From the IMG/VR virus record IMGVR_UViG_3300011744_000001, positions 2,218 to 66,217 of that record: DNA of 64,000 bases; one strand, given 5' to 3'. The stretch comes from a virus. Lineage: Duplodnaviria; Caudoviricetes. The translations under genes and the position numbers were made by a program. Positions 8,231 through 24,716 of the stretch are shown here, in pieces (position 1 is the stretch's first letter; every line of letters begins with the position of its first letter). The notes under the pieces are model-generated. The model was not told where the DNA came from. It saw only the letters and a list, made by a program, of their open reading frames with translations, and ran no database searches.

Positions 8231-10131
8231 CTACCTTTGTAAAATTATCACACTCATTTAAAACTCAATTCGATTTAAATTTTTCTGAAAAAATTATTGT
8301 TGATTTCTTTGCTGGTGGCGGTGGAGCAAGCACAGGTTTAGAAATGGGTCTAAACCGAAGCGTATTTGCAGCTGTAAATCACAATCCCAAAGCACTATCA
8401 ATGCATGAGGCTAATCATCCTCACGCAAAACATTATGTTCAGGATGTTTTTGCAGTAGATCCTGTAGAAATCTGTGAGGGGTATCCAGTCGGCTGGTTTC
8501 ATGCGAGTCCGGATTGTACTCATCACTCACAAGCTGCTGGCGGTCAACCACGGAAAAAAGAGATTCGTGATTTAGCGTGGGTTATTCCTAAATTTGCTGG
8601 CAAGGTAAAACCAGACATTATTTCAATGGAAAATGTTAAGCAGATGCTTAATTGGGGGCCATTGATTGCAAAACGTGACAAAGCCACTGGGCGCGTTGTG
8701 ACCTTAGATAAAATAATTGTTAATGGGAAAAAACAGTATCGAGTTGCAGAACATGGTGAATATGTACCACGAGATAATCAATTTTTAGTACCCGATCCAA
8801 AAAGAATAGGACAAACATGGAAACAATTTGTTCGTCATCTTGAGGGATTGGGCTATGTAGTTGAGTGGAAAAAGCTTGTTGCTGCTGACTTTGGTGCTCC
8901 AACTACTCGCGAGCGTTTATTTGTTATTGCTCGATGTGATGGTCAGCCAATTGTGTGGCCTGAACCAACGCACATAAAGAAATCGAAAGTTACTAAAGCA
9001 ACCAAGAAAAAGCAAAAGTGGCGTGCAGCTGCTGAAATCATAGATTTTAGTGACCTTGGCAAATCTATTTTTAATCGTCCAAAACCATTGGCTGATGCAA
9101 CATTAAAGCGAATTGCTCGTGGAATTAAAAAATTTGTTTTAGAAACAGATGAACCTTATTTAGTTGAGTCAACATTACCATTTATTAGCCGTGACTTTGG
9201 GACTTCAACAGGGCATCAAATCACTGAACCTTTGGCAACTACAACATCAGCTTTTGGTGGTCATAGTGCTTTGGTTAGTCCAATTATTGCACCATTCCTG
9301 ACTGAATTTGCCAATGCTTCACAACAGCGTAATTGGTCTATTGATCAACCATTAACGACAATTTGTGCTCAAGTTAAAGGTGGGCATCATGGTTTAGTTG
9401 CTCCATTGCTTATTCATGCTGGACATGGAGAAGGTACACCAGAAAATCCAAGATGGAGTGATGGGTGTGACAATATTCTTGATCCTCTAGGAACAATCAC
9501 AGCTTCTGGTGCAAGTCGTAATTTAGTTGCAGCTTACATGATGCAAGCGAATGGTGGTTTTAATGAAACAGATGGGCGACATCTTTTCGAACCATTATCA
9601 ACCATTACAAATACTGGTAGTCAGCAACAGTATGTATCGGCTGTATTCACACAAGCTTTTTATGGTGACAAATCAAATTCAGATCATCGTGCTGATTCGC
9701 TAGATAGTCCGCTGCGGACAATAACTACGGAGAATCGACACAGTATTGTTAGCGCGACTTTAAGTAAAGAAAACTATGAAGGTGCTTTACGTGTTGCAGC
9801 GTTTTTTATCAATTTCTATGGCAATGGTGATGCTCGTGATATTACCGCACCACTTGACACACTCACCACAAAAGATCGGCTGGCTCTAGTTACTGTTTGG
9901 ATCAAGAACGTACCTTGGGTCATTGTTGATATTCGTATGCGAATGCTTAAACCGCGAGAGTTGTATAAGGGGCAAGGTTTTCCAGATTCTTACATTATTG
10001 AAAATGGACACGATGGCAAGCCCTTAACAAAAACAGATCAAGTGCATATGTGCGGTAACAGTGTGTCTCCTTTACCAATGGCAGCCATAGCAAAAGTAAA
10101 TAATCCATTTCTATTAGGTGGTGCTAAATGA
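8227..10131 (+). CDS. DNA cytosine-C5 methyltransferase with long variable region
   Basis: DFFAGGGG (I), SPDC (IV), MENV (VI), TTRERLF (VIII), RMLKPREL..GQGFP (IX) and CGNSV (X) motifs. Confidence 0.92.
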   Translation: MTTFVKLSHSFKTQFDLNFSEKIIVDFFAGGGGASTGLEMGLNRSVFAAVNHNPKALSMHEANHPHAKHYVQDVFAVDPVEICEGYPVGWFHASPDCTHHSQAAGGQPRKKEIRDLAWVIPKFAGKVKPDIISMENVKQMLNWGPLIAKRDKATGRVVTLDKIIVNGKKQYRVAEHGEYVPRDNQFLVPDPKRIGQTWKQFVRHLEGLGYVVEWKKLVAADFGAPTTRERLFVIARCDGQPIVWPEPTHIKKSKVTKATKKKQKWRAAAEIIDFSDLGKSIFNRPKPLADATLKRIARGIKKFVLETDEPYLVESTLPFISRDFGTSTGHQITEPLATTTSAFGGHSALVSPIIAPFLTEFANASQQRNWSIDQPLTTICAQVKGGHHGLVAPLLIHAGHGEGTPENPRWSDGCDNILDPLGTITASGASRNLVAAYMMQANGGFNETDGRHLFEPLSTITNTGSQQQYVSAVFTQAFYGDKSNSDHRADSLDSPLRTITTENRHSIVSATLSKENYEGALRVAAFFINFYGNGDARDITAPLDTLTTKDRLALVTVWIKNVPWVIVDIRMRMLKPRELYKGQGFPDSYIIENGHDGKPLTKTDQVHMCGNSVSPLPMAAIAKVNNPFLLGGAK

Positions 10132-15636: not shown

Positions 15637-16322
15637 ATCAAAATACTTTAACACACCGCGAATTATGTGAGATCGGCGCAGCGCTTTTACGAAAGCCTGA
15701 GTCTGCAAACGGTCATGGCTGTCATTTCTCTATCATTGAACCATCATGCTATGGAGAGAATCCAGATGTATTCGGCATTCGTCATGGTAGTGATGGTTAC
15801 GACATTGGCACGATACTACTGGAAGCTAAAACAAGCCGCGCTGACTTTCTTGCTGACCGTAAGAAACCACATCGTATTTCTCCAGAGAAAGGTATTGGGA
15901 AATGGCGTTATTTCATTTGTCCGACTGACTTAATAAAACCAGATGAATTACCTGAACGCTGGGGGCTTATCTATGTCTCACCAGGTAAGCGCTGTAAATA
16001 CATTAAAGGCGCAATGGCAGTACCTAAAGATTGTGTTGGCTACAGTGGAAAGTATCGGCACGGCGGAAAGTTGGAAATCAGTTTTAATGAATTTGCTTTC
16101 CATAACCGTAATGTTGAAAACGAATTTAATTTACTGGCTTTGGCATTGGCCCGATTAAGAGACCCAGAGCAAATTCTTTATATGCAGCGTGAATTTTCAA
16201 AGCTGGTACAAAGAAATTTTGATCTTGAACGGGAGGTTAATAGTCTACAGGCCTATAAGACTACTGCTGACCTAACAACGATTGTGAACAATATTAAATC
16301 TAAAAAGGAAACAGTTTTATGA
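15633..16322 (+). CDS. PD-(D/E)XK/MmcB-like nuclease-fold protein
   Basis: ENPDVFG...LLEAKTSRADFLAD motif. Confidence 0.6.
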   Translation: MNQNTLTHRELCEIGAALLRKPESANGHGCHFSIIEPSCYGENPDVFGIRHGSDGYDIGTILLEAKTSRADFLADRKKPHRISPEKGIGKWRYFICPTDLIKPDELPERWGLIYVSPGKRCKYIKGAMAVPKDCVGYSGKYRHGGKLEISFNEFAFHNRNVENEFNLLALALARLRDPEQILYMQREFSKLVQRNFDLEREVNSLQAYKTTADLTTIVNNIKSKKETVL

Positions 16323-16539
16323 ATCAATATATGTTGATCCACCTGCACTATGACCTAAATGAAGCACATAAACTTCTTGTTAGATTAGCCACGCCGTGAT
16401 TCAGAATAATGCGCCTAAAGGGGCAACGCACTATTATCAAAATCAGTGGGATGTGGCTTATCACTTTTATTCAAAAGAAGTTAATTTGTGGTTTGTTTGG
16501 GTTGATCATTGTGATTAATGGTCATCTAGTTAATTTTCT

Positions 16540-16581
16540 TCGGAACCTCATGAGGATAAAGTAATCTTAAAATATTAGAAT
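16540..16581 (+). promoter_or_regulatory. Late-promoter motif upstream of the tape measure gene
   Basis: TCGGAAC-N29-TAGAAT; member of the repeated TTGGAAC motif family. Confidence 0.6.
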
Positions 16582-16610
16582 CACTCTATGTAAAAATTGG
16601 GTGATTTTTT

Positions 16611-18965
16611 ATGTTTAATGATGATGAAAACAAGCCATTCCTGCAATATGACGAATTGGGCTTCATTATCGGTCTAAAGCAAACAGGTCGTGACATATCC
16701 AAGATTGATAAAACAACAGAAGAAATCCGAGACATTTTGCTAGGCTTTCAGAAGAACCTGGAACAATCACTATTATCAAAATATTCGGTACCCAAACCTA
16801 AGCTAAGTGCATTAGAACAGGCATTGATTGATGCCCAGATTAAACCAGTAGATTCTGATGATCTATTAAAGGAAATGGCGAACCCTATTGTTCAGGCCAC
16901 ACTGGCTTTAGACAAGGTTGCAAAAACGCTGGATGATTTAATTGAAGAATCAATTCCAGAATTAAAAAGAAATCGTTCCCCGAATGTATTACAACGTCAG
17001 GCCGTTGAATTGGATTCACCTGAGAGTGTACTACGTGAATTTTCCAATAGAGGGAATGAGCCAAGTAGGGATAATTCAACTGCTGTAAATCAACAAACCG
17101 AGACCACACGCGCCGTTGGTCAATCAGGACCTAAACCAGGTGTATCTGCTGAACAAATTGACCCAATTCCAGTACAGCGCGAACGTGATTCAAAAGGGCG
17201 CTTCATTGGCGGAGCAAGTGAATCTAAATCGACATTGGGTAAAATCGCTCAAACGATTGGCACGGCGATTAAGGGTAGTATTGCAAGCACTCCACAAGGT
17301 GTGGACCCAACAGTTGATGCAATCAATGAAGTCGCCACCGTACTGTCACCAGTTAAACGTGCGGCTGGCTTTATGCTTCGTCCACTTACGGGATTAATGA
17401 AGTCACGCAAGCGCAATGAACCATTGCCAAAAGAACAATCTGAACACAACAAAAAACAAGTAAAGCTACTCCAGCGTATTGCTGACAATTTACAATCTAA
17501 AGGTGGGTTGCTGGGTGGCATTGGTAAGCTGATCGGTGCAGGTGGTGGCCTACTGGGTGGATTGCTTGGCGGGTTGCTGGGTAAAGGTGCCAAAGGCCTA
17601 GGCAAGATTCTAAAATTCGGTAAAGGATTACCTGTCATTGGTGCGTTACTCACTGCTATGTCTTTTAGTGGATGGAGCGAGAAGTCTACAAAAGAGAAAG
17701 GTCAAGCAACGGGTTCAGCGATTGGTGGTTTGGCTGGTGGTGCACTGGGTAGTATCTTTGGCCCAGTAGGAACCATTGCAGGCGCTGCTATCGGTTCATG
17801 GATTGGTGACAAGCTTGGCGGTGTTGTTGCGCCGTATGTCAAAGAATGGACTGATTCCCTGATCAATGCAGATATTCCATCCGTAATTAAAAAAGGCTGG
17901 GATGGGTTTATTGACCTGGTATCGAATGCATTTAATCTAACTCCCGCTGGTGCTGCTGTTAAAGGTGCAAAAACTTTTGTTGATTGGGGCAAAGGTGCAG
18001 CCATGACAGTTGGCAACACAATCTCTCAGGCATGGAATGATACCGTTGGCGATGGTGATAAAAAGGTTGCCAAGTTTGGGGATGCTGCTAATTCTGGGAA
18101 GTTGGGGAAATATCAGCCATTGGCGGATGCTATTGCTAAAGGTGAGGGTACTTATACTTCTGTTAATACTGGTGGTAATCCTAGTAAACGTGTTAAAGGG
18201 GATTTTCAGTCAAAGAATGTACCAAATTTAACTGATATGACCATTGATGAAATATTGAAAGCAAATGAAAAACCGTTCGGTGATTCTAATCGAATTAATG
18301 CTGCTGGTAAGTATCAGATTATTGCCTCAACTTTGAAGAATGTTAAAAAAGATATGGGGCTTACAGGTAAAGAAAAATTTACTCCCGAATTGCAAGATAA
18401 AATGTTCATGCATTTATTACCACAATCAGCTAAGAATTATGTAGAGGGCAAAAGTGGTAATAAAGATCGTGCCATTTCTGATATTTCAAGTGTATGGTCA
18501 TCTGTGGCAAACCCAAACACAGGAAAAACAAGTCATCAGGATGGAATAAATAAAGCATCACCACAATCTGTTAATCGAGTTGGTACTGCCCTTGATTTGG
18601 CTAAATCAAAACCTAATATTCGCTCAACTACACAAAGTAGCCAATCTATAAGTAATATTAAATCACCTATAGCTAAAGATGCTGAATCTATAATGCAAAA
18701 AGTTAAGCAGCAAACTTCAACTTTAAGCTCTATACCAGCAGTGACACCTATAGCAACTCGATCCCAGTCTATTGCAGCAAGTTATACTCCGCCAAAACTT
18801 GAAACTAAAATTGAACCAGCCAAAGAGTACCTTACATCGCCTGATCCACAAAAAGTTCATGTAGTGAACTCAAGTGGTGGTAATATTAGTCAAAATGTGA
18901 GCAATCGCATATTGGCTCACGCAATAACTGGTGGATTGGGGATGGGGATTAAGTGGAATGGTTAA
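16611..18965 (+). CDS. Tape-measure-like virion protein with lysozyme-like muramidase domain (P1 Sit-like role)
   Basis: Gly/Ala-rich hydrophobic segments; AIAKGEG..., AAGKYQII and ISSVWSSV lysozyme-superfamily motifs at about 18111-18606. Confidence 0.75.
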   Translation: MFNDDENKPFLQYDELGFIIGLKQTGRDISKIDKTTEEIRDILLGFQKNLEQSLLSKYSVPKPKLSALEQALIDAQIKPVDSDDLLKEMANPIVQATLALDKVAKTLDDLIEESIPELKRNRSPNVLQRQAVELDSPESVLREFSNRGNEPSRDNSTAVNQQTETTRAVGQSGPKPGVSAEQIDPIPVQRERDSKGRFIGGASESKSTLGKIAQTIGTAIKGSIASTPQGVDPTVDAINEVATVLSPVKRAAGFMLRPLTGLMKSRKRNEPLPKEQSEHNKKQVKLLQRIADNLQSKGGLLGGIGKLIGAGGGLLGGLLGGLLGKGAKGLGKILKFGKGLPVIGALLTAMSFSGWSEKSTKEKGQATGSAIGGLAGGALGSIFGPVGTIAGAAIGSWIGDKLGGVVAPYVKEWTDSLINADIPSVIKKGWDGFIDLVSNAFNLTPAGAAVKGAKTFVDWGKGAAMTVGNTISQAWNDTVGDGDKKVAKFGDAANSGKLGKYQPLADAIAKGEGTYTSVNTGGNPSKRVKGDFQSKNVPNLTDMTIDEILKANEKPFGDSNRINAAGKYQIIASTLKNVKKDMGLTGKEKFTPELQDKMFMHLLPQSAKNYVEGKSGNKDRAISDISSVWSSVANPNTGKTSHQDGINKASPQSVNRVGTALDLAKSKPNIRSTTQSSQSISNIKSPIAKDAESIMQKVKQQTSTLSSIPAVTPIATRSQSIAASYTPPKLETKIEPAKEYLTSPDPQKVHVVNSSGGNISQNVSNRILAHAITGGLGMGIKWNG

Positions 18966-18966
18966 A

Positions 18967-19308
18967 ATGAGAAAAATTATTTTATTTCTAGGTTTGGGCA
19001 TTGCTCTAAATTCAACTTTTGCTGCTTCAAATCAAGAAAAAGTAAAAGCATGTGAGCAAACCTTGGCTGCGGGTATGTTTAACGGTCTTTTGGAAGATGT
19101 CTGTGGTTTTGAGGGGAATGTTAAAGCAAATTTAATGGCTATGTATGATCAAGGCCAATGCAGAAAAATAATTCCACAGAAAACGGTAGATAAACTTGCT
19201 AAAGATGTTGTAATGGATACTAAAAAGAGAATAGATGCCTATAGTAAACACACCTTTTGTGAAGAAAACATGCAGCCATACGTTGATTTAAAGAAAGAAT
19301 TTAAATAA
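18967..19308 (+). CDS. Secreted Cys-containing protein (candidate muramidase immunity protein)
   Basis: Signal peptide MRKIILFLGLGIALNSTFA; four Cys; starts 1 nt after the tape-measure stop. Confidence 0.7.
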   Translation: MRKIILFLGLGIALNSTFAASNQEKVKACEQTLAAGMFNGLLEDVCGFEGNVKANLMAMYDQGQCRKIIPQKTVDKLAKDVVMDTKKRIDAYSKHTFCEENMQPYVDLKKEFK

Positions 19309-19350
19309 ACAAGGTTCAGGGAACTTTTATATTTTAAAGGGGTAAAAGTA

Positions 19351-19878
19351 ATGAGTAAAATTTTAAAGAAAGTTGTTTTTGTTATTGGTTTAGGGATGAT
19401 GCATACTGTTTATGCCGCAGATATAAAAACAACTGGAAATGAAAATAAAGCAAACCAGTACACAAGGTGCGCTTCTAGTGCATTAACAACTGGGTTCATT
19501 AAGACAGCTTTTAATCAGCAAAGTGATCGTGAATCTCAAGCTCTTATTTATGGAGGAGCAGGGATGGCACTGTATGCTGGCTATTTAACATCACCTGAAT
19601 ATGCTTTGAGTAGTTATAAAAATCACCAACAAAAAATAAAACAAGACTCGTTAAAATATATTAGCAATGGAACTCGAAATGAAATTTATAAGTTTACAGT
19701 TTCATACTTAGTGCCAAAAAATGAGAAATGTGAACCTCTTTTTAGAGAGCTTGGGAAGATTTTAGCGAAAAAAGATGCTGATTGGGATAATTTTCAAAAT
19801 TCTGATCAAGCTAAGGAATTAATGGAGAATATTACGCAATCTGCAAAAGAAATGATTGTCGGTAAAAATTCTAATTAA
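19351..19878 (+). CDS. Secreted protein of unknown function
   Basis: Signal peptide ending VYA-A; two Cys. Confidence 0.7.
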   Translation: MSKILKKVVFVIGLGMMHTVYAADIKTTGNENKANQYTRCASSALTTGFIKTAFNQQSDRESQALIYGGAGMALYAGYLTSPEYALSSYKNHQQKIKQDSLKYISNGTRNEIYKFTVSYLVPKNEKCEPLFRELGKILAKKDADWDNFQNSDQAKELMENITQSAKEMIVGKNSN

Positions 19879-19911
19879 GAGGAAAGTAGTTCATCGCACA
19901 GATGACTTAGA

Positions 19912-20028
19912 AAACAGGAAGTTGTTGTTAAGAATCAAAATAGTGGTACTATTAATCAAAATGTGAGCAATAGAATTTTAGCTCATGCAATAACAGGTGG
20001 CTTGGGGCAGGATAAATGGGGCGCATAA
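19912..20028 (+). pseudogene. Orphan copy of the tape-measure gene C-terminus
   Basis: Encodes KQEVVVKNQNSGTINQNVSNRILAHAITGGLGQDKWGA*, against QKVHVVNSSGGNISQNVSNRILAHAITGGLGMGIKWNG* at the end of 16611-18965; no start codon. Confidence 0.85.
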
Positions 20029-20405
20029 TTTTAGGCTTAACAATAATTTGTTTAAGCAATGTGGCGAAAGCTGGAATAGATAAATGCAAAACATATACCA
20101 ATCAAACTGATCTTAATAAGTGTGCCTCAAGGGTGCTTAGTGAAAGTGATGCTAAATTAGGAAAGATTTATTCTAATTACCAAGCTGAATTAAGCCCTGA
20201 CGAAAAAAATCGTTTAAGGGAATCACAAAAGTTATGGGTACAGTTCAAAGAAAAAGATTGTTCTTTTGAGGCATCACCTGTATCAAAGGGATCAATGTAT
20301 GGTTATGTTCTTTCATCTTGTTTGGTTAATAGGACGGATAAAAGAATAACAGAGCTTGAGAATATGACTAGCTGTAAAAATGGAACAGAACCAGGTTGTT
20401 TGTAA
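20016..20405 (+). CDS. LprI/DUF1311 lysozyme-inhibitor-family secreted protein
   Basis: Signal peptide; NQTDLNKCA...LRESQKLWVQFKEKDC...CLVNRTDKR is the LprI pattern. Confidence 0.85.
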   Translation: MGRIILGLTIICLSNVAKAGIDKCKTYTNQTDLNKCASRVLSESDAKLGKIYSNYQAELSPDEKNRLRESQKLWVQFKEKDCSFEASPVSKGSMYGYVLSSCLVNRTDKRITELENMTSCKNGTEPGCL

Positions 20406-20458
20406 ACCTCAAGGATTTTATAAGTTGGGTTTAAGATTGGATTAGGCAGGAAGTCTAA

Positions 20459-20704
20459 ATGTCTAAAAGAAAATTATCATATGCCCAGCACTTGGTCAGC
20501 ACACCCAAAAAACGTGGAATCTATTTTTGGGCTCGCCGTGGCATCTCACTTTTGATTGCTATAGGTGTGGGTGGATTGGCTGAATCCTATATTGGCGATA
20601 CTGGGGCATTTATCGCAGGAATAGCAGTATTTTTGGTGGTTTATATTTTTATATCTCATTATTTAGCATTGGTTGTTTTGGCAATAGAAGATATGATGAG
20701 TTGA
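20459..20704 (+). CDS. Small membrane protein
   Basis: Basic N-terminus followed by two hydrophobic helices. Confidence 0.65.
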   Translation: MSKRKLSYAQHLVSTPKKRGIYFWARRGISLLIAIGVGGLAESYIGDTGAFIAGIAVFLVVYIFISHYLALVVLAIEDMMS

Positions 20705-20715
20705 AAGGTATTTAA

Positions 20716-22154
20716 ATGAATTTAGTTTTAGGCGCGAATACTATTGTGCCAAATAAATTGCTTAATATTAATATAAGTGTTTTTGGGTTTCTTTATCTGA
20801 GGTGGATTTTAGTGCGTATGCATTATACGGCAAAGATTATAAGATAAAATCAGATGACGATATGATATTTTATGGTCAGGTTTACAATAAAAACAAAACT
20901 ATTCAATTGAAGAATTTAAGCATTAACACCGTTGGATTTTCAATTATTATTCCAAAGCTGGCAGATGATGTGCAGCGGATTGCTGTATGTGCAACATTGG
21001 TAGAAACCGACACAAAATTTTCTATCCTGAACAGGCTAAATGTCAAAGTTCAGTTAGAGGAAAGCTTGATATGTGGGGGTGATATAGATTGCAAAGATAG
21101 ACAAGAATCAGCATTAATCTTGTGTGAGCTATATCGGCATAAAGATAACTGGAAGTTCAAACTAGTTGGTCAAGGCTTTTATGGTGGTTTGAAGCCGTTA
21201 GCTGAGTTTTACGGAGTTGAGATTGCTGATGAGCAAGTTATTGAGCAGTTTGAAAATAAAGTCATCTTAGATATTTCACATGAAATAATAAAGGAGTTTA
21301 AGATTTTACTCAAAGACTTGTTAGATATTGAAAATCCATTAAACAAAAAAGCCCAGAAAAAGATTGAAAATTTTTGTGATAGCAAAAAAATAGATTTTGA
21401 AGAAATTATTTCTTATGCAAGACGTGAAGTGAATAGTTTTATGGAGTTCTATTTGTCATCCTATTATTTTGATGACATAGAGGAAGATAAGGCTCACTTT
21501 AAAAATTTATATGATATTTTTAAACCCAGCAAAAGAATTATCACAGATACCAACAAGATGTTTTCACGTTTAGATCGTGCTGATAAAGTTAGAAAAGGAA
21601 AACTAAAACCTATTCAAGTTAAAGGGATAATTACCAAAAATACTGAGCTTATATTCTTCTATTTGGATTATGTAACTTTACCTTATGACGAAGATGAAGA
21701 AAATATCTATGTGCACGAGGGGGAAATTTTCCTAACAAATGAAAGAATAATTTTTAAATCTATTGATCAAGTTATAAATATACCATTTTCTAATTTGGTA
21801 TCTGTTGATTTAAATAATGATGAGTTGTCCATCTTATCAAAATCTAAAAAAGCATCATGCACAATATTTTCAGATGATGCCTGTGTTTTACATGCTTATA
21901 TTGAATTGGCATTAAAAATGTATCATAGGCAGGCTGATGTTTTACAAAGCAGTAGTTATAAGAGAAAGAAAATTCCCCAAGCAATAATGTCAACGGTGTG
22001 GCAACGTTGTGGTGGCGCTTGTGTTGAATGTGGTCGAACTCACGCTTTAGAATTTGATCACATTATTCCTTTATCTAAAGGTGGTTCAAATTCTGATAAA
22101 AACTTACAGATACTATGTCGGGAGTGTAATTTGAAAAAACATGGACGAATATAG
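20716..22154 (+). CDS. TerD-domain / PH-like / HNH endonuclease fusion with apparent 5' frameshift
   Basis: TerD motifs (DDMIFYGQ; LILCELYRHKDNWKFKLVGQGFYGGL), EGEIFLTNERIIF and C-terminal HNH (CVEC...FDHIIPLSKGGSN...LQILCRECN). The TerD-like start MNLVLGAN at 20716 is 1 nt out of frame with the 20802 ORF. Confidence 0.8.
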
Positions 22155-22214
22155 GTTAAATCCCCCATTTTTTTACACCATCAATAATCATTTAAAACCA
22201 TTCAAGTCAAAATT

Positions 22215-22544
22215 ATGAAAACCAAAACTCTAGCCTTAATAACCCTTTCTCTACTAACAATCGGATGCCAAAAGCAACACGTATCCGATCCAAAAGCCAC
22301 GGCGCAAATTGAAGCTGCTGATAAAAAGATTGGTGAGTATCTGGACCTGCTGGACAATCCTAATGCGGATAGAGAAGAACAGAGAAAAGTGTTGTGTGAA
22401 GAATATCCAAGCACCTATGAAAAAGACTATGTGCCTGCATTGTTAAAGCTTGAACCAGGCAATTACACCAAAGAGGGCCTGCAAAACGATTTTAAAATAG
22501 TGTTTGACTCATATTTAAAGAAATTGGATATTAAATGTACTTAA
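22215..22544 (+). CDS. Lipoprotein
   Basis: Lipobox LTIG-C after a basic and hydrophobic signal peptide. Confidence 0.8.
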   Translation: MKTKTLALITLSLLTIGCQKQHVSDPKATAQIEAADKKIGEYLDLLDNPNADREEQRKVLCEEYPSTYEKDYVPALLKLEPGNYTKEGLQNDFKIVFDSYLKKLDIKCT

Positions 22545-22567
22545 TTTAGTATTTATTTCTAATTTAC

Positions 22568-22596
22568 TTGCTTATTCACATTTAAGGGCGTATAAA
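22568..22596 (+). promoter_or_regulatory. Sigma70-like promoter of the phage tRNA
   Basis: TTGCTT-17-TATAAA ending 12 nt before the tRNA. Confidence 0.6.
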
Positions 22597-22608
22597 GCTT
22601 CAATCCGT

Positions 22609-22685
<77 letters not shown>

Positions 22686-22842
22686 ATTAATACGCTCTGT
22701 GATATTTAAATTGCTGTTTCAAATATATAGGCAGCAATTAAATTAGCTTAAATAACCCTAAAAAAGCTAACAATTATTAGATTCTATAAATGCTGTTTCT
22801 CCTCTCGTCAGTCCTAGAATTGTAGTAAATCAAAACGATCAC

Positions 22843-23091
22843 TTGAGCTCAGAAATGAGTGATATTGAATTGAATATTATTAATGAATGGCATTTAGCCA
22901 AAGCCTGTAATGGCAACGAAATTAGTGTAAAGATTATTCCCGTTAAACGTCAGCAAAGCACCTTGAATGGCTTTAAATGGGTTGAAGTCGGTAAAAAGGT
23001 ACTTTTACAGTCTGGACAGGAAGTTGAATTCAACCTGGACGGTAAGAGCTTCTATACAGCAGTAAATCAGCTGTATCGTTTGACTTCATAA
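22843..23091 (+). CDS. Hypothetical protein upstream of the cold-shock gene
   Basis: 82-aa ORF; ATG 22855 is an alternative start. Confidence 0.6.
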   Translation: MSSEMSDIELNIINEWHLAKACNGNEISVKIIPVKRQQSTLNGFKWVEVGKKVLLQSGQEVEFNLDGKSFYTAVNQLYRLTS

Positions 23092-23197
23092 TGTAATACA
23101 CTTGTAGTATCTATTTGAACATGAGTAGATAGAGTTAAAAGTAAATCATTTATTTTCAACTCTCTTAATTAACAAAGATTTAAAAGGTTTAGATTTT

Positions 23198-23407
23198 ATG
23201 TCTGAAACAGTAAACGGAACAGTAAAGTGGTTTAATGAGACTAAAGGTTTTGGTTTTATTCAAGCTGATTCTGGTCAAGATGTTTTCGCCCACTTTAGTG
23301 AAATTCAAAGCAATGGTTTCAAGGTTTTACAAGAGGGCCAACGTGTGAAATTCGTTTTGGGTCAAGGTAAAAAAGGACCACAGGCAATGACGATTACTGT
23401 TATCTAA
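23198..23407 (+). CDS. csp: Cold-shock protein (CspA family)
   Basis: GTVKWFN, KGFGFI (RNP1) and VFAHFS (RNP2); terminator at 23431-23455. Confidence 0.95.
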
Positions 23408-23598
23408 TTTCAGATAGTCAGTTAAAAAAGAAAGCTCACATTGTGGGCTTTTTTTACGTTTGGAATCACCTGAAATTTGAACAACTCATGCTTTCCATAA
23501 TTGATGTGCAGGCTAGACCGTACATCGAAAGGAAAAGCGTATCTCATACCGTCCGCCTTTCTGCCTGTCTAATTTTTTAGACGGTTAGGTATGTAGAA

Positions 23599-24132
23599 AT
23601 GAACATAGCAAATAATCCTATTCAATTCTCAAATGTGGTTTTAGGGAATGAGCAGCAACTTGGTGTGAATGCTCGTGACGTACATGCTGCACTTGAAGTG
23701 AAAACAGACTTTTCAGATTGGATGAAACGCCGTATTAAGCAGTGTAAATTTGAAGAAAATTATGACTATATGCTGATCCTCAAAAAAGAGGAGCAGGTAT
23801 CAGGTGCTAAATATCTCAATGAATACATCATCTCTATAGATATGGCAAAACATCTTGGTATGATGGAGCGTAACAATAAAGGTCACGAAATCCGAAAATA
23901 TTTCATTGAACAAGAAAAGATTGCTCGCAGCGTAACTCATAATTTGCAAATTGAAATCGGTAAGGCTATGCAGTATCTTGAGCAATTCTCTAATTCGCTT
24001 TCGGATGCTGGCAGATTACTCTGTGTGGGTGGTAAGCAGATCAAACCTAAATTACTTAAAGAACTAGATGAGTTGGTAGGGCAAGTACAGCCTTGTCTCA
24101 ACTCCTATGATGGCAAAAATATTCTTGAGTGA
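23599..24132 (+). CDS. AntA/AntB-family antirepressor
   Basis: VNARDVHAAL, DFSDWMKRRI, FEENYDY and EYIISIDMAKHLGMMERN motifs. Confidence 0.85.
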   Translation: MNIANNPIQFSNVVLGNEQQLGVNARDVHAALEVKTDFSDWMKRRIKQCKFEENYDYMLILKKEEQVSGAKYLNEYIISIDMAKHLGMMERNNKGHEIRKYFIEQEKIARSVTHNLQIEIGKAMQYLEQFSNSLSDAGRLLCVGGKQIKPKLLKELDELVGQVQPCLNSYDGKNILE

Positions 24133-24203
24133 TTGGAACACAATCTATTTTCACCATACTATGAATGCAAAATAGCCCTATACACCAATAGGGCTTTTTT
24201 ATT

Positions 24204-24716
24204 ATGGGCAGTTTAAACCTTGCGGCGGTTACACCAGATACGCCGTATATCAAAAAAATCAAGGCAGCATTGGAAAAAGGAACAGGGGATAAGATTCCGA
24301 TTGTTGAAGTCAAAAAAGTTCAACGGAAAGGCGGAGTCAGTACCTCACCTGTCTTTTTTCGGTTTGCTGGTGGACAGGAACTGGTTTTGTACGTCCGTGC
24401 AAGCGCCGATGTCATCAAGGCAGAATTGAACGGTAAGGAAATCGTCCTGCCAGGTGATTTCAGCGACGACTATCAGCCGACATTTGATAATGCGGTTTCT
24501 GGTGTTGCCAGCCTTGTTCGAAAGGCTCAATCAATGATTGATGAGCAAAATAAGAAAGATAAGTTTAAATTGCCACCACGAAATAATCGTGGTATCACCC
24601 AGCAGCTGAATGACAAGCGCGAAGAAGAAAGTCAACTGGATAAAGATATAGCTGGATTGACTTCACAGCGTGACCAATTGCTTGAGCAGTTGCGACATAT
24701 TCAATCCCTCCCATAA
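24204..24716 (+). CDS. Hdf/DarA-N-like virion protein
   Basis: Resembles the DarA N-terminal fold (F.F..GQ.L.L...); coiled-coil tail; preceded by the late-promoter motif. Confidence 0.55.
   Translation: MGSLNLAAVTPDTPYIKKIKAALEKGTGDKIPIVEVKKVQRKGGVSTSPVFFRFAGGQELVLYVRASADVIKAELNGKEIVLPGDFSDDYQPTFDNAVSGVASLVRKAQSMIDEQNKKDKFKLPPRNNRGITQQLNDKREEESQLDKDIAGLTSQRDQLLEQLRHIQSLP

Follow-up and report, generated by a model that had tools for sequence, protein, structure and literature searches.

Exported-protein cassettes behind an exchangeable tail muralytic module in a P1-like Acinetobacter phage, with an LprI-family protein predicted to cover GH24-type tail lysozymes

Prophages can encode envelope proteins that block DNA entry via the incoming tape measure protein, as is the case for TP-J34 Ltp and HK97 gp15; to our knowledge, neither inhibits an enzymatic module or is carried as a cassette linked to the end of a tail gene. 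In phage T4, superinfection exclusion is brought about by Spackle (gp61.3), a periplasmic protein that inhibits the tail lysozyme gp5 (PMC7677548). Phage P1 encodes Sit, a tape measure protein with a lytic transglycosylase (muralytic) domain, apart from its sheath and tube genes (PMC9024508), and LprI-domain proteins are predicted immunity proteins beside lysozyme-like type VI secretion system (T6SS) effectors (PMC9796082, PMC12135965). Here we analyzed a 64,000-nucleotide stretch of the IMG/VR virus record IMGVR_UViG_3300011744_000001 ("the window"), in which a gene for a 784-amino-acid (aa) tail protein with a muralytic module is followed by genes for small exported proteins, one of them an LprI-family (DUF1311) protein whose gene begins within an orphan copy of the tail gene's conserved 3' end ("the tip"). 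The reading that we favor, at a probability of roughly 0.55, is phage-against-phage exclusion, in which the LprI protein would act against the GH24-type tail lysozymes of incoming relatives. This would be Spackle-like exclusion in a new, modular form with an unrelated inhibitor family, a view that is partly supported by the comparisons below.

The window makes up nearly the whole of the 66-kb record, which is 97% complete according to CheckV. By its PHROG matches it is a temperate myovirus with P1-like features, encoding DNA methyltransferases, a primosomal protein, and RusA in its left part and, beyond that, antirepressors, an Hdf-like protein, baseplate, terminase, a P1-type sheath, tube, portal, and a Dar-like giant protein. 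The closest isolated phage is Acinetobacter phage vB_AbaM_ABMM1 (ABMM1); megablast of the region against 50,697 phage records gave zero matches. A homologue search covering viral contigs, species-representative genomes, and 247 Acinetobacter genomes yielded about 30 full-length homologues of the 784-aa gene, and every relative found came from an Acinetobacter genome or viral contig. Compared loci carrying relatives of this gene are labeled by L-numbers (L008, L016, etc.). The part of the window under study is organized as follows.

16611-18965, forward strand: tape-measure-like injection protein of 784 aa, from its open reading frame (ORF), comparable to P1 Sit
17472-17855, forward strand: glycine-zipper or hydrophobic segment of this protein, aa 288-415 (PDB 9ki1 chain g, Pfam Gly-zipper_Omp)
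18099-18620, forward strand: lambda-lysozyme-like muralytic module, aa 497-670, swappable (tblastn, profile against 3d3d and 1am7)
18848-18965, forward strand: conserved C-terminal tip of the 784-aa gene (invariant columns, nucleotide identity peak)
18958-19308, forward strand: exported helical protein with four Cys, start probably ATG 18958, 113 aa when counted from ATG 18967
19351-19878, forward strand: second exported protein, 175 aa, a mobile cassette
19906-20028, forward strand: orphan tip, 40 codons that repeat the gene end and lack a start (open frame, repeat, HMMER)
20016-20405, forward strand: exported LprI/DUF1311 protein of 129 aa, predicted plug for GH24 modules (Pfam PF07007)

The ORF at 16611-18965 was present as described in an earlier note on this DNA, which had also placed a lysozyme-like domain before the tip. 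Residues ~495-670 matched phage proteins that carry the annotation lambda lysozyme, endolysin, or tape measure (tblastn, E down to 3e-29), and a 10-sequence profile of the module matched phage lambda lysozyme (PDB 3d3d, 1am7; E 2e-5) over enzyme residues 60-129, against an E of only 0.17 for the single module sequence. A G-E-G-T/S motif lies at the position of the lambda R catalytic Glu, as judged by eye, and the Pfam scan placed no model over the module. The family call draws on the profile and tblastn matches, because the AlphaFold2 model built from a 4-row alignment was poor (predicted local distance difference test score, pLDDT, 57) and the empty Foldseek search made with it was meaningless. 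Lambda lysozyme is a lytic transglycosylase of family GH104, and the name "muramidase" used in the earlier note may therefore be too specific.

Among the ~30 homologues, the N-terminal two thirds and the last ~100 residues aligned throughout, and the middle fell into unrelated groups; the ABMM1 homologue, for example, aligned at aa 1-515 and 665-779 with Pfam PF18013 in between. The module is thus not invariant, and at least five types were found on related backbones.

Lambda-like module: window, L008, L014, L015, L066
GH24 module (Pfam PF00959): L016, L019, L024, L062
Lytic transglycosylase module (PDB 9udh, E 6e-14): L013, L017, L067
PF18013 module (Pfam): ABMM1 group, L022, L023, L025, and others
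Endolysin-like module (PDB 7q47, weak match): L020, L021
Module without assignment: L018 group

These types were scattered over a maximum likelihood tree of 29 backbone genes: the six module labels needed 18 changes, which is not below the number for shuffled labels, and the GH24 label needed 4 changes for its 4 rows. The backbones of L015 and L022 are 99% identical, whereas their modules are of the lambda-like and PF18013 types, respectively. The alignments support the proposal of a polymorphic entry enzyme, with the catalytic module as an exchangeable cassette among close homologues, and exchange proceeds via upstream and downstream junctions of its own inside the gene.

The LprI-family gene at 20016-20405, likewise recognized earlier, was assigned to Pfam PF07007 with 68.7 bits against a cutoff of 22 (E 6e-19), and its product was matched by the DUF1311 structure PDB 3gi7 (E 5e-13). 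A signal peptide was seen by eye, residues C24, C36, C82, and C102 vary little or not at all across 90 sequences, and the Q30/G92 motifs are conserved. Searches of Pfam and PDB with this protein returned DUF1311 entries only and no Spackle, and tblastn against phages returned none. LprI is the first gene after the tip at three of the four loci with a GH24 module and at 0 of the 25 with other modules (hypergeometric p about 0.001, with loci treated as independent). GH24 relatives in other phage types (L098-L101) have no LprI downstream. In each of the three cases the sister locus differs in both module and cassette (L016/L017, L024/L013, and L019/L008, with support of 100/100, 100/100, and 95/95, respectively). 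The ~95-aa tail between GH24 and LprI follows the backbone, being 81% identical between L016 and L017 versus 53% between L016 and L019; GH24 and LprI were therefore not imported as one contiguous block, which argues, in a small sample, for selection keeping the pair together. The window's own LprI is unmatched to the resident lambda-like module and would instead act on GH24-type rivals.

Co-folding of the small proteins with the tail enzyme had been suggested in the earlier note, and for LprI and the GH24 module the prediction passed its controls. The mature window LprI (90-row alignment) was co-folded with the GH24 module of L016 (aa 452-615) in three runs with three controls, giving scores of 0.73, 0.72, and 0.72 against 0.00 for the best control; the mark applied is reached by 58 of 80 solved complexes and by 2 of 110 mismatched pairs. 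The runs shared at least 96% of contacts, with a partner pLDDT of 93. On the GH24 side the predicted interface includes residues 475-480 and 484-488, and thereby Glu477 and Asp486, which we take to be the catalytic residues of the L016 module from the E11 and D20 motif of T4 lysozyme (GH24 E-x8-D). On the LprI side it comprises residues 28-35 and 88-101, the two most conserved patches of the family. LprI is thus predicted to sit over the catalytic Glu and Asp of the GH24 module. Since no similar complex has been solved (3gi7 and 6ar7, the only DUF1311 entries in PDB, are not complexes), the result is unlikely to be recall of a known structure.

Spackle and the role proposed here for LprI are alike in that a small, disulfide-containing phage protein with a signal peptide binds a GH24-type tail lysozyme (PMC7677548). 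They differ in family, one being an unrelated helical bundle, and in mode, since Spackle acts allosterically, away from the catalytic residues, whereas LprI in the model covers the catalytic Glu and Asp. In contrast to the phage studied here, T4 is a virulent phage whose inhibitor is encoded by an early gene at a distance from gene 5, and it shows neither module swapping nor a cassette array. Among the papers searched, none connects LprI with the exclusion of phages by prophages.

Several points weigh against exclusion by LprI. Tail muralytic domains, such as those of T7 gp16 and TM4 Tmp, are often dispensable in good growth conditions, and blocking one may therefore exclude only weakly. The predicted binding of LprI is a matter of model confidence, and the GH24 chain entered the co-fold with an author-built shallow alignment of 3 rows. 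The sample is small and comes from a single genus, Acinetobacter, and within it the fourth GH24-type locus, L062 (= L097), carries a 305-aa exported protein, not LprI. The four-Cys gene adjoins lambda-like modules (window, L008, L014) as well as PF18013-type ones (L063, and upstream in L078/L079), and the FPPKD family of small exported proteins, labeled after a sequence motif, follows at least four module types. A promoter and terminator scan of 16300-24300 gave counts at or below the shuffled expectation, with no site between the structural gene and the cassettes. No inhibitory activity has ever been demonstrated for the DUF1311 domain, and the Pfam name "lysozyme inhibitor" has no direct experimental basis; for Mycobacterium tuberculosis LprI, lysozyme inhibition is known for its MliC domain, and Salmonella ScwA, which has an LprI domain, gives no lysozyme protection (PMC7933661). 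The expectation that downstream genes covary with the module held for GH24 and LprI, at three of four loci and on separate backbones, and not in general, because the four-Cys and FPPKD families each adjoin several module types. The same applies to the enzyme/inhibitor system as a whole, which has support for the GH24-LprI pair from three backbones and the co-fold and is not a general property of the locus. The island also carries unrelated cargo.

This cargo is the mainstay of the most durable alternative, an ordinary cargo hot spot at a permissive late-gene end. The exported proteins would then serve the lysogen otherwise, through immunity to T6SS effectors, envelope changes, or receptor masking, with no tie to the tail enzyme, and the co-occurrence of GH24 and LprI would reflect physical closeness. 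The island holds genes as unrelated as TerD-HNH, toxin-antitoxin pairs, a cold-shock gene, an antirepressor, and a tRNA, and its GC content is 0.29-0.38 versus about 0.42 in the phage. The independence of the four-Cys and FPPKD families from module type fits this account too, as does the case of Pantoea, where LprI-domain proteins have been predicted to be orphan T6SS immunity proteins (PMC9796082). In ten Acinetobacter chromosomes, distant DUF1311 genes also stand alone, none being beside a lysozyme or tail gene. However, GH24 and LprI recur together on three backbones though the intervening stretch follows the backbone, the co-fold would place LprI on the GH24 catalytic cleft, and polymorphism this extreme, in a module carried by nearly identical backbones, demands a selective agent that targets the module. 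We regard the hot spot as a real but rather doubtful possibility.

The first downstream protein could also be a self-directed safety factor that acts on the phage's own tail enzyme rather than against rivals in lysogens, limiting damage by released or misdirected enzyme or late lysis from without by sibling virions. The first cassette's start overlaps the structural gene's stop, which points to coupled translation and co-expression late on, the scan detected no separate promoter, and T4 Spackle also limits lysis from without (PMC7677548). However, such a role leaves unexplained the LprI gene behind an orphan tip in a lambda-type phage and the second cassette stacked in L024, and the tape-measure-like protein would be made in the cytoplasm, away from an exported partner; we consider it unlikely. 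The endolysin of the window (58448-58972) has GH108 and PG_binding_3 domains, a family unlike every tail muralytic module seen, and LprI directed at the phage's own endolysin was rejected on this ground.

Exclusion by LprI acquired from a relative is consistent with the structure of the orphan tip, the start-less repeat that the earlier note had reported to overlap the start of the LprI-family gene (19906-20028 against 20016-20405). Its frame is open from 19906 to a stop at 20026-20028, contains no ATG, GTG, or TTG, and matches the full 784-aa protein with E 2e-8 (HMMER). The DNA forms a direct repeat of 94 nucleotides (nt) with 78% identity (18848-18941 versus 19914-20007), with a sharp start of homology at 19914. 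Positions 19914-20019 are 88-94% identical to the tips of L008, L063, L017, and L015, compared with only the 78% of the 94-nt repeat for the resident tip. The orphan ends in G-Q-D-K-W, as does the L016-type tip, which directly abuts LprI, and in L016, L019, and L024 the tip homology continues unbroken through LprI. From the foreign identity, the L016-type ending, and the homology running into LprI, we conclude that the orphan came with LprI from a relative; it is a recombination scar that also carries the LprI ribosome-binding region. An origin of the orphan by local tandem duplication or slippage at the resident gene end, without horizontal exchange, would fit the same-strand, direct orientation of the repeat and its position 1066 nt downstream from the resident copy; it was rejected as very improbable on the difference in identity between resident and foreign tips, the L016-type ending, and the extension of homology into LprI in three relatives.

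A second, independent orphan was found in L024 (9444-9512), in the order tip, LprI, 23-codon orphan tip, FPPKD-family gene. Both orphans consist of the conserved tip only, with no catalytic part, and the tip is therefore a junction for the downstream genes and not for the catalytic domain. The earlier idea of the tip as the recombination point for cassette swapping is retained in this narrower sense, with two independent orphans, foreign orphan DNA, and conserved synonymous sites on its side.

The tip's last codons contain the Shine-Dalgarno region and start codon of the next gene, its G-rich end serving as the Shine-Dalgarno sequence. Across relatives the first cassette starts with the pattern A-ATG-NTT-AA, overlapping the tip's stop codon, and for this reason many cassettes begin M-V/L/F-K. 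Nucleotide identity among relatives peaks within the tip (0.81-0.90), and at positions with identical amino acids, codon choice also agrees in 0.80-0.84 of comparisons in the tip versus 0.53-0.58 in the flanks. Conservation of the tip thus goes beyond what the protein requires, a pattern expected from frequent recombination. A stretch of about 60 nt within it, coding Q-E-V-V-V..N-Q-N-V-S-N-R (window 18848-18941; in L014, for example, 9077-9193), is conserved at synonymous sites too, which could reflect recombination, gene conversion, or an unrecognized DNA or RNA signal. The promoter scan found nothing above threshold in the tip, and the surroundings of the cassettes show no integron-type boundary repeats. 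The resident tip region is only 70-76% identical in DNA to those of relatives. A scan of IMG/VR with the tip DNA gave no contigs beyond the known relatives and no further orphans. Isolated tip fragments without the rest of the gene occur in Acinetobacter chromosomes (L072 3504-3620, L074 3658-3711, and L073 3085-3180), beside remnants of Hdf-like genes; these loci are decayed prophages with a surviving tip.

In the mechanism that we propose, a moving cassette would take a piece of the tip along, since its start codon and ribosome-binding site lie there, and the tip would supply homology for the left-hand crossover. The orphan and LprI would have arrived from a relative whose tip directly abuts LprI and would have been joined behind the two resident cassettes by an unequal or illegitimate event. 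Exported to the periplasm, LprI would cover the active-site cleft of GH24-type tail lysozymes, so that local wall cutting by incoming GH24-type relatives would be blocked and DNA entry lowered, i.e., superinfection exclusion. For GH24-type phages LprI would exclude their own type, and for the lambda-type phage of the window it would be an added cassette against another type. A broader arms race among temperate Acinetobacter phages, in which each module type has a matching periplasmic inhibitor, tip-linked cassettes with inhibitors of further types accumulate in prophages and keep out several rival types together, and phages escape by module swapping, is possible, and we put it forward tentatively.

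The locus resembles contact-dependent inhibition (CDI), Rhs, and T6SS loci, with which the earlier note had compared it, in its conserved body, variable enzymatic module, signal-peptide proteins encoded directly downstream, and retained fragments of the upstream gene. A further likeness is the presence of LprI-domain proteins among the predicted immunity proteins to lysozyme-like effectors (PMC9796082, PMC12135965). The orphan logic of those loci fails here, because the orphans consist of the tip only and hold no alternative catalytic part. The variable module lies upstream, not downstream, of the conserved junction, the enzyme is a virion part used for entry rather than a toxin delivered between cells, and strict pairing occurs in one pair only.

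The 784-aa protein consists of a helical N-terminal part, a Gly-rich hydrophobic segment, the muralytic module, a linker, and the conserved tip. It is covered over its full length by phrog_6922 (E 1e-170) and also matches phrog_1047 (tail-associated lysin), and the homologue in ABMM1 is syntenic and annotated as "tail tip lysozyme". Residues 288-415 match PDB 9ki1 chain g, a solved "probable tape measure protein" (E 9e-11), and Pfam Gly-zipper_Omp gives a weak match. No second tape-measure candidate was seen on examination of the sheath, tube, baseplate, and portal genes of the window; the 784-aa gene sits outside the tail block, and the window also encodes two large virion-type proteins of 752 and 1397 aa. 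Because of the Gly-rich match and the lack of another candidate among the tail genes, the protein is probably tape-measure-like, and the earlier designation "tape measure" is kept in this weaker form.

P1 Sit, T5 Pb2, and TM4 Tmp are likewise long, mostly helical tail proteins with a wall-cutting domain towards the C-terminus (PMC9024508), and the window is a P1-like myovirus that also encodes sheath, Hdf, and Dar-like proteins. Similarity in sequence to Sit was not detected, however, and tblastn against phages gave zero P1-group matches. The present protein differs from all three in that the module family varies from phage to phage and exported-protein cassettes follow the gene. In Acinetobacter sp. 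NIPH 2699 (L012/L075), the homologous gene (L012 6980-8398) is shortened to 472 aa, ends before the muralytic module, and is followed by a gene for a 65-aa Cys/His-rich exported peptide; this locus is either a decayed prophage or an enzyme-free variant.

The genes behind the tip differ in every relative examined. The first is usually for a small exported protein, of the four-Cys, FPPKD, or LprI family or a singleton of 122-351 aa, and further along these mosaic islands toxin-antitoxin pairs, HNH nucleases, cold-shock genes, and antirepressors follow, up to the conserved Hdf-like gene. In the window, as reported previously, the tail gene is followed by genes for two secreted proteins, both with Sec-type signal peptides as judged by eye. 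The stop TAA at 18963-18965 is separated by one base from ATG 18967, which confirms the reported spacing of 1 nt; homologues of the four-Cys protein begin M-V-K, however, and the true start is therefore probably ATG 18958, overlapping the stop. This family has 11 relatives, all from Acinetobacter, with the four Cys invariant, and its AlphaFold2 model is all helical (pLDDT 85). Foldseek with the model found nothing at E <= 0.001. In VIA-align it matched type II secretion pilotins best (Z 7.6 and 7.3), at values common for helical proteins, and it reached a Z of only about 5 against the Tai4 and Rap2a immunity proteins.

In two metagenome contigs (L078 344-691 and L079 1934-2281), a 45%-identical relative of the four-Cys gene sits directly upstream of a remote homologue carrying a PF18013-like module, so the family is linked to the tail gene in two different arrangements. 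In L063 (G125:C1, 948-3230), the C-terminal 420 aa of a homologue are joined in frame to an integrase-like N-terminus; next come a four-Cys gene with an altered C-terminus and three further exported-protein genes. This locus looks like a prophage remnant that retained its cassette array. The gene for the second exported protein recurs at 75-83% DNA identity in L020, L022 (partial), and L063 in varied arrangements, and its 175-aa product gave no lead in Pfam, PHROGs, NCBIfam, or Atlas. Downstream of LprI, the window continues as follows.

20459-20704, forward strand: membrane protein cassette, 81 aa, common to other island variants
20802-24132, forward strand: rest of the low-GC variable island (TerD-HNH, lipoprotein, tRNA-Met, cold-shock-like gene, antirepressor)

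The 81-aa gene is 77-82% identical in DNA in L015, L017, and L023 and is inverted in L057. The gene at 20802-22154, a candidate defense gene, encodes 450 aa, with a TerD domain at the N-terminus and an HNH nuclease at the C-terminus (Pfam); L016 has a different HNH protein at this island position. The 109-aa lipoprotein encoded at 22215-22544 (lipobox L-T-I-G-C) recurs in the islands of L016, L017, L020, and L024, and the label "recombination directionality factor" of its phrog_478 looks wrong for an exported lipoprotein. A tRNA-Met (CAT) gene lies at 22609-22685 (ARAGORN). Toxin-antitoxin pairs in the islands of relatives (Phd/RelE-like and HigB/HigA-like, by eye) were found at L008 11370-11874, L063 5655-6159, and L057 3525-4222. 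In the window, a terminator-like hairpin at 24174-24195 ends the island, and the conserved Hdf-like gene starts at 24204.

Inhibition of a tail lysozyme as a means of exclusion is known from one virulent phage, T4 with its Spackle protein. The present locus suggests that temperate phages employ the principle as exchangeable modules, with inhibitors from an unrelated family, and such inhibitors may explain the high variability of tail muralytic modules. It also shows a way in which phage cargo arrays can grow, with the start of a cassette embedded in the conserved end of the upstream gene, which travels along as an orphan. DUF1311, a large family with a doubtful name, would gain a concrete and cheaply testable role. 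As a corollary of the arms race, if true, DUF1311 would be an active-site plug for GH24-type lysozymes in general, and thousands of proteins in this family, T6SS immunity candidates among them, would have a first mechanism. Prophage-encoded inhibitors like LprI would be one predictor of which Acinetobacter lysogens resist which phages.

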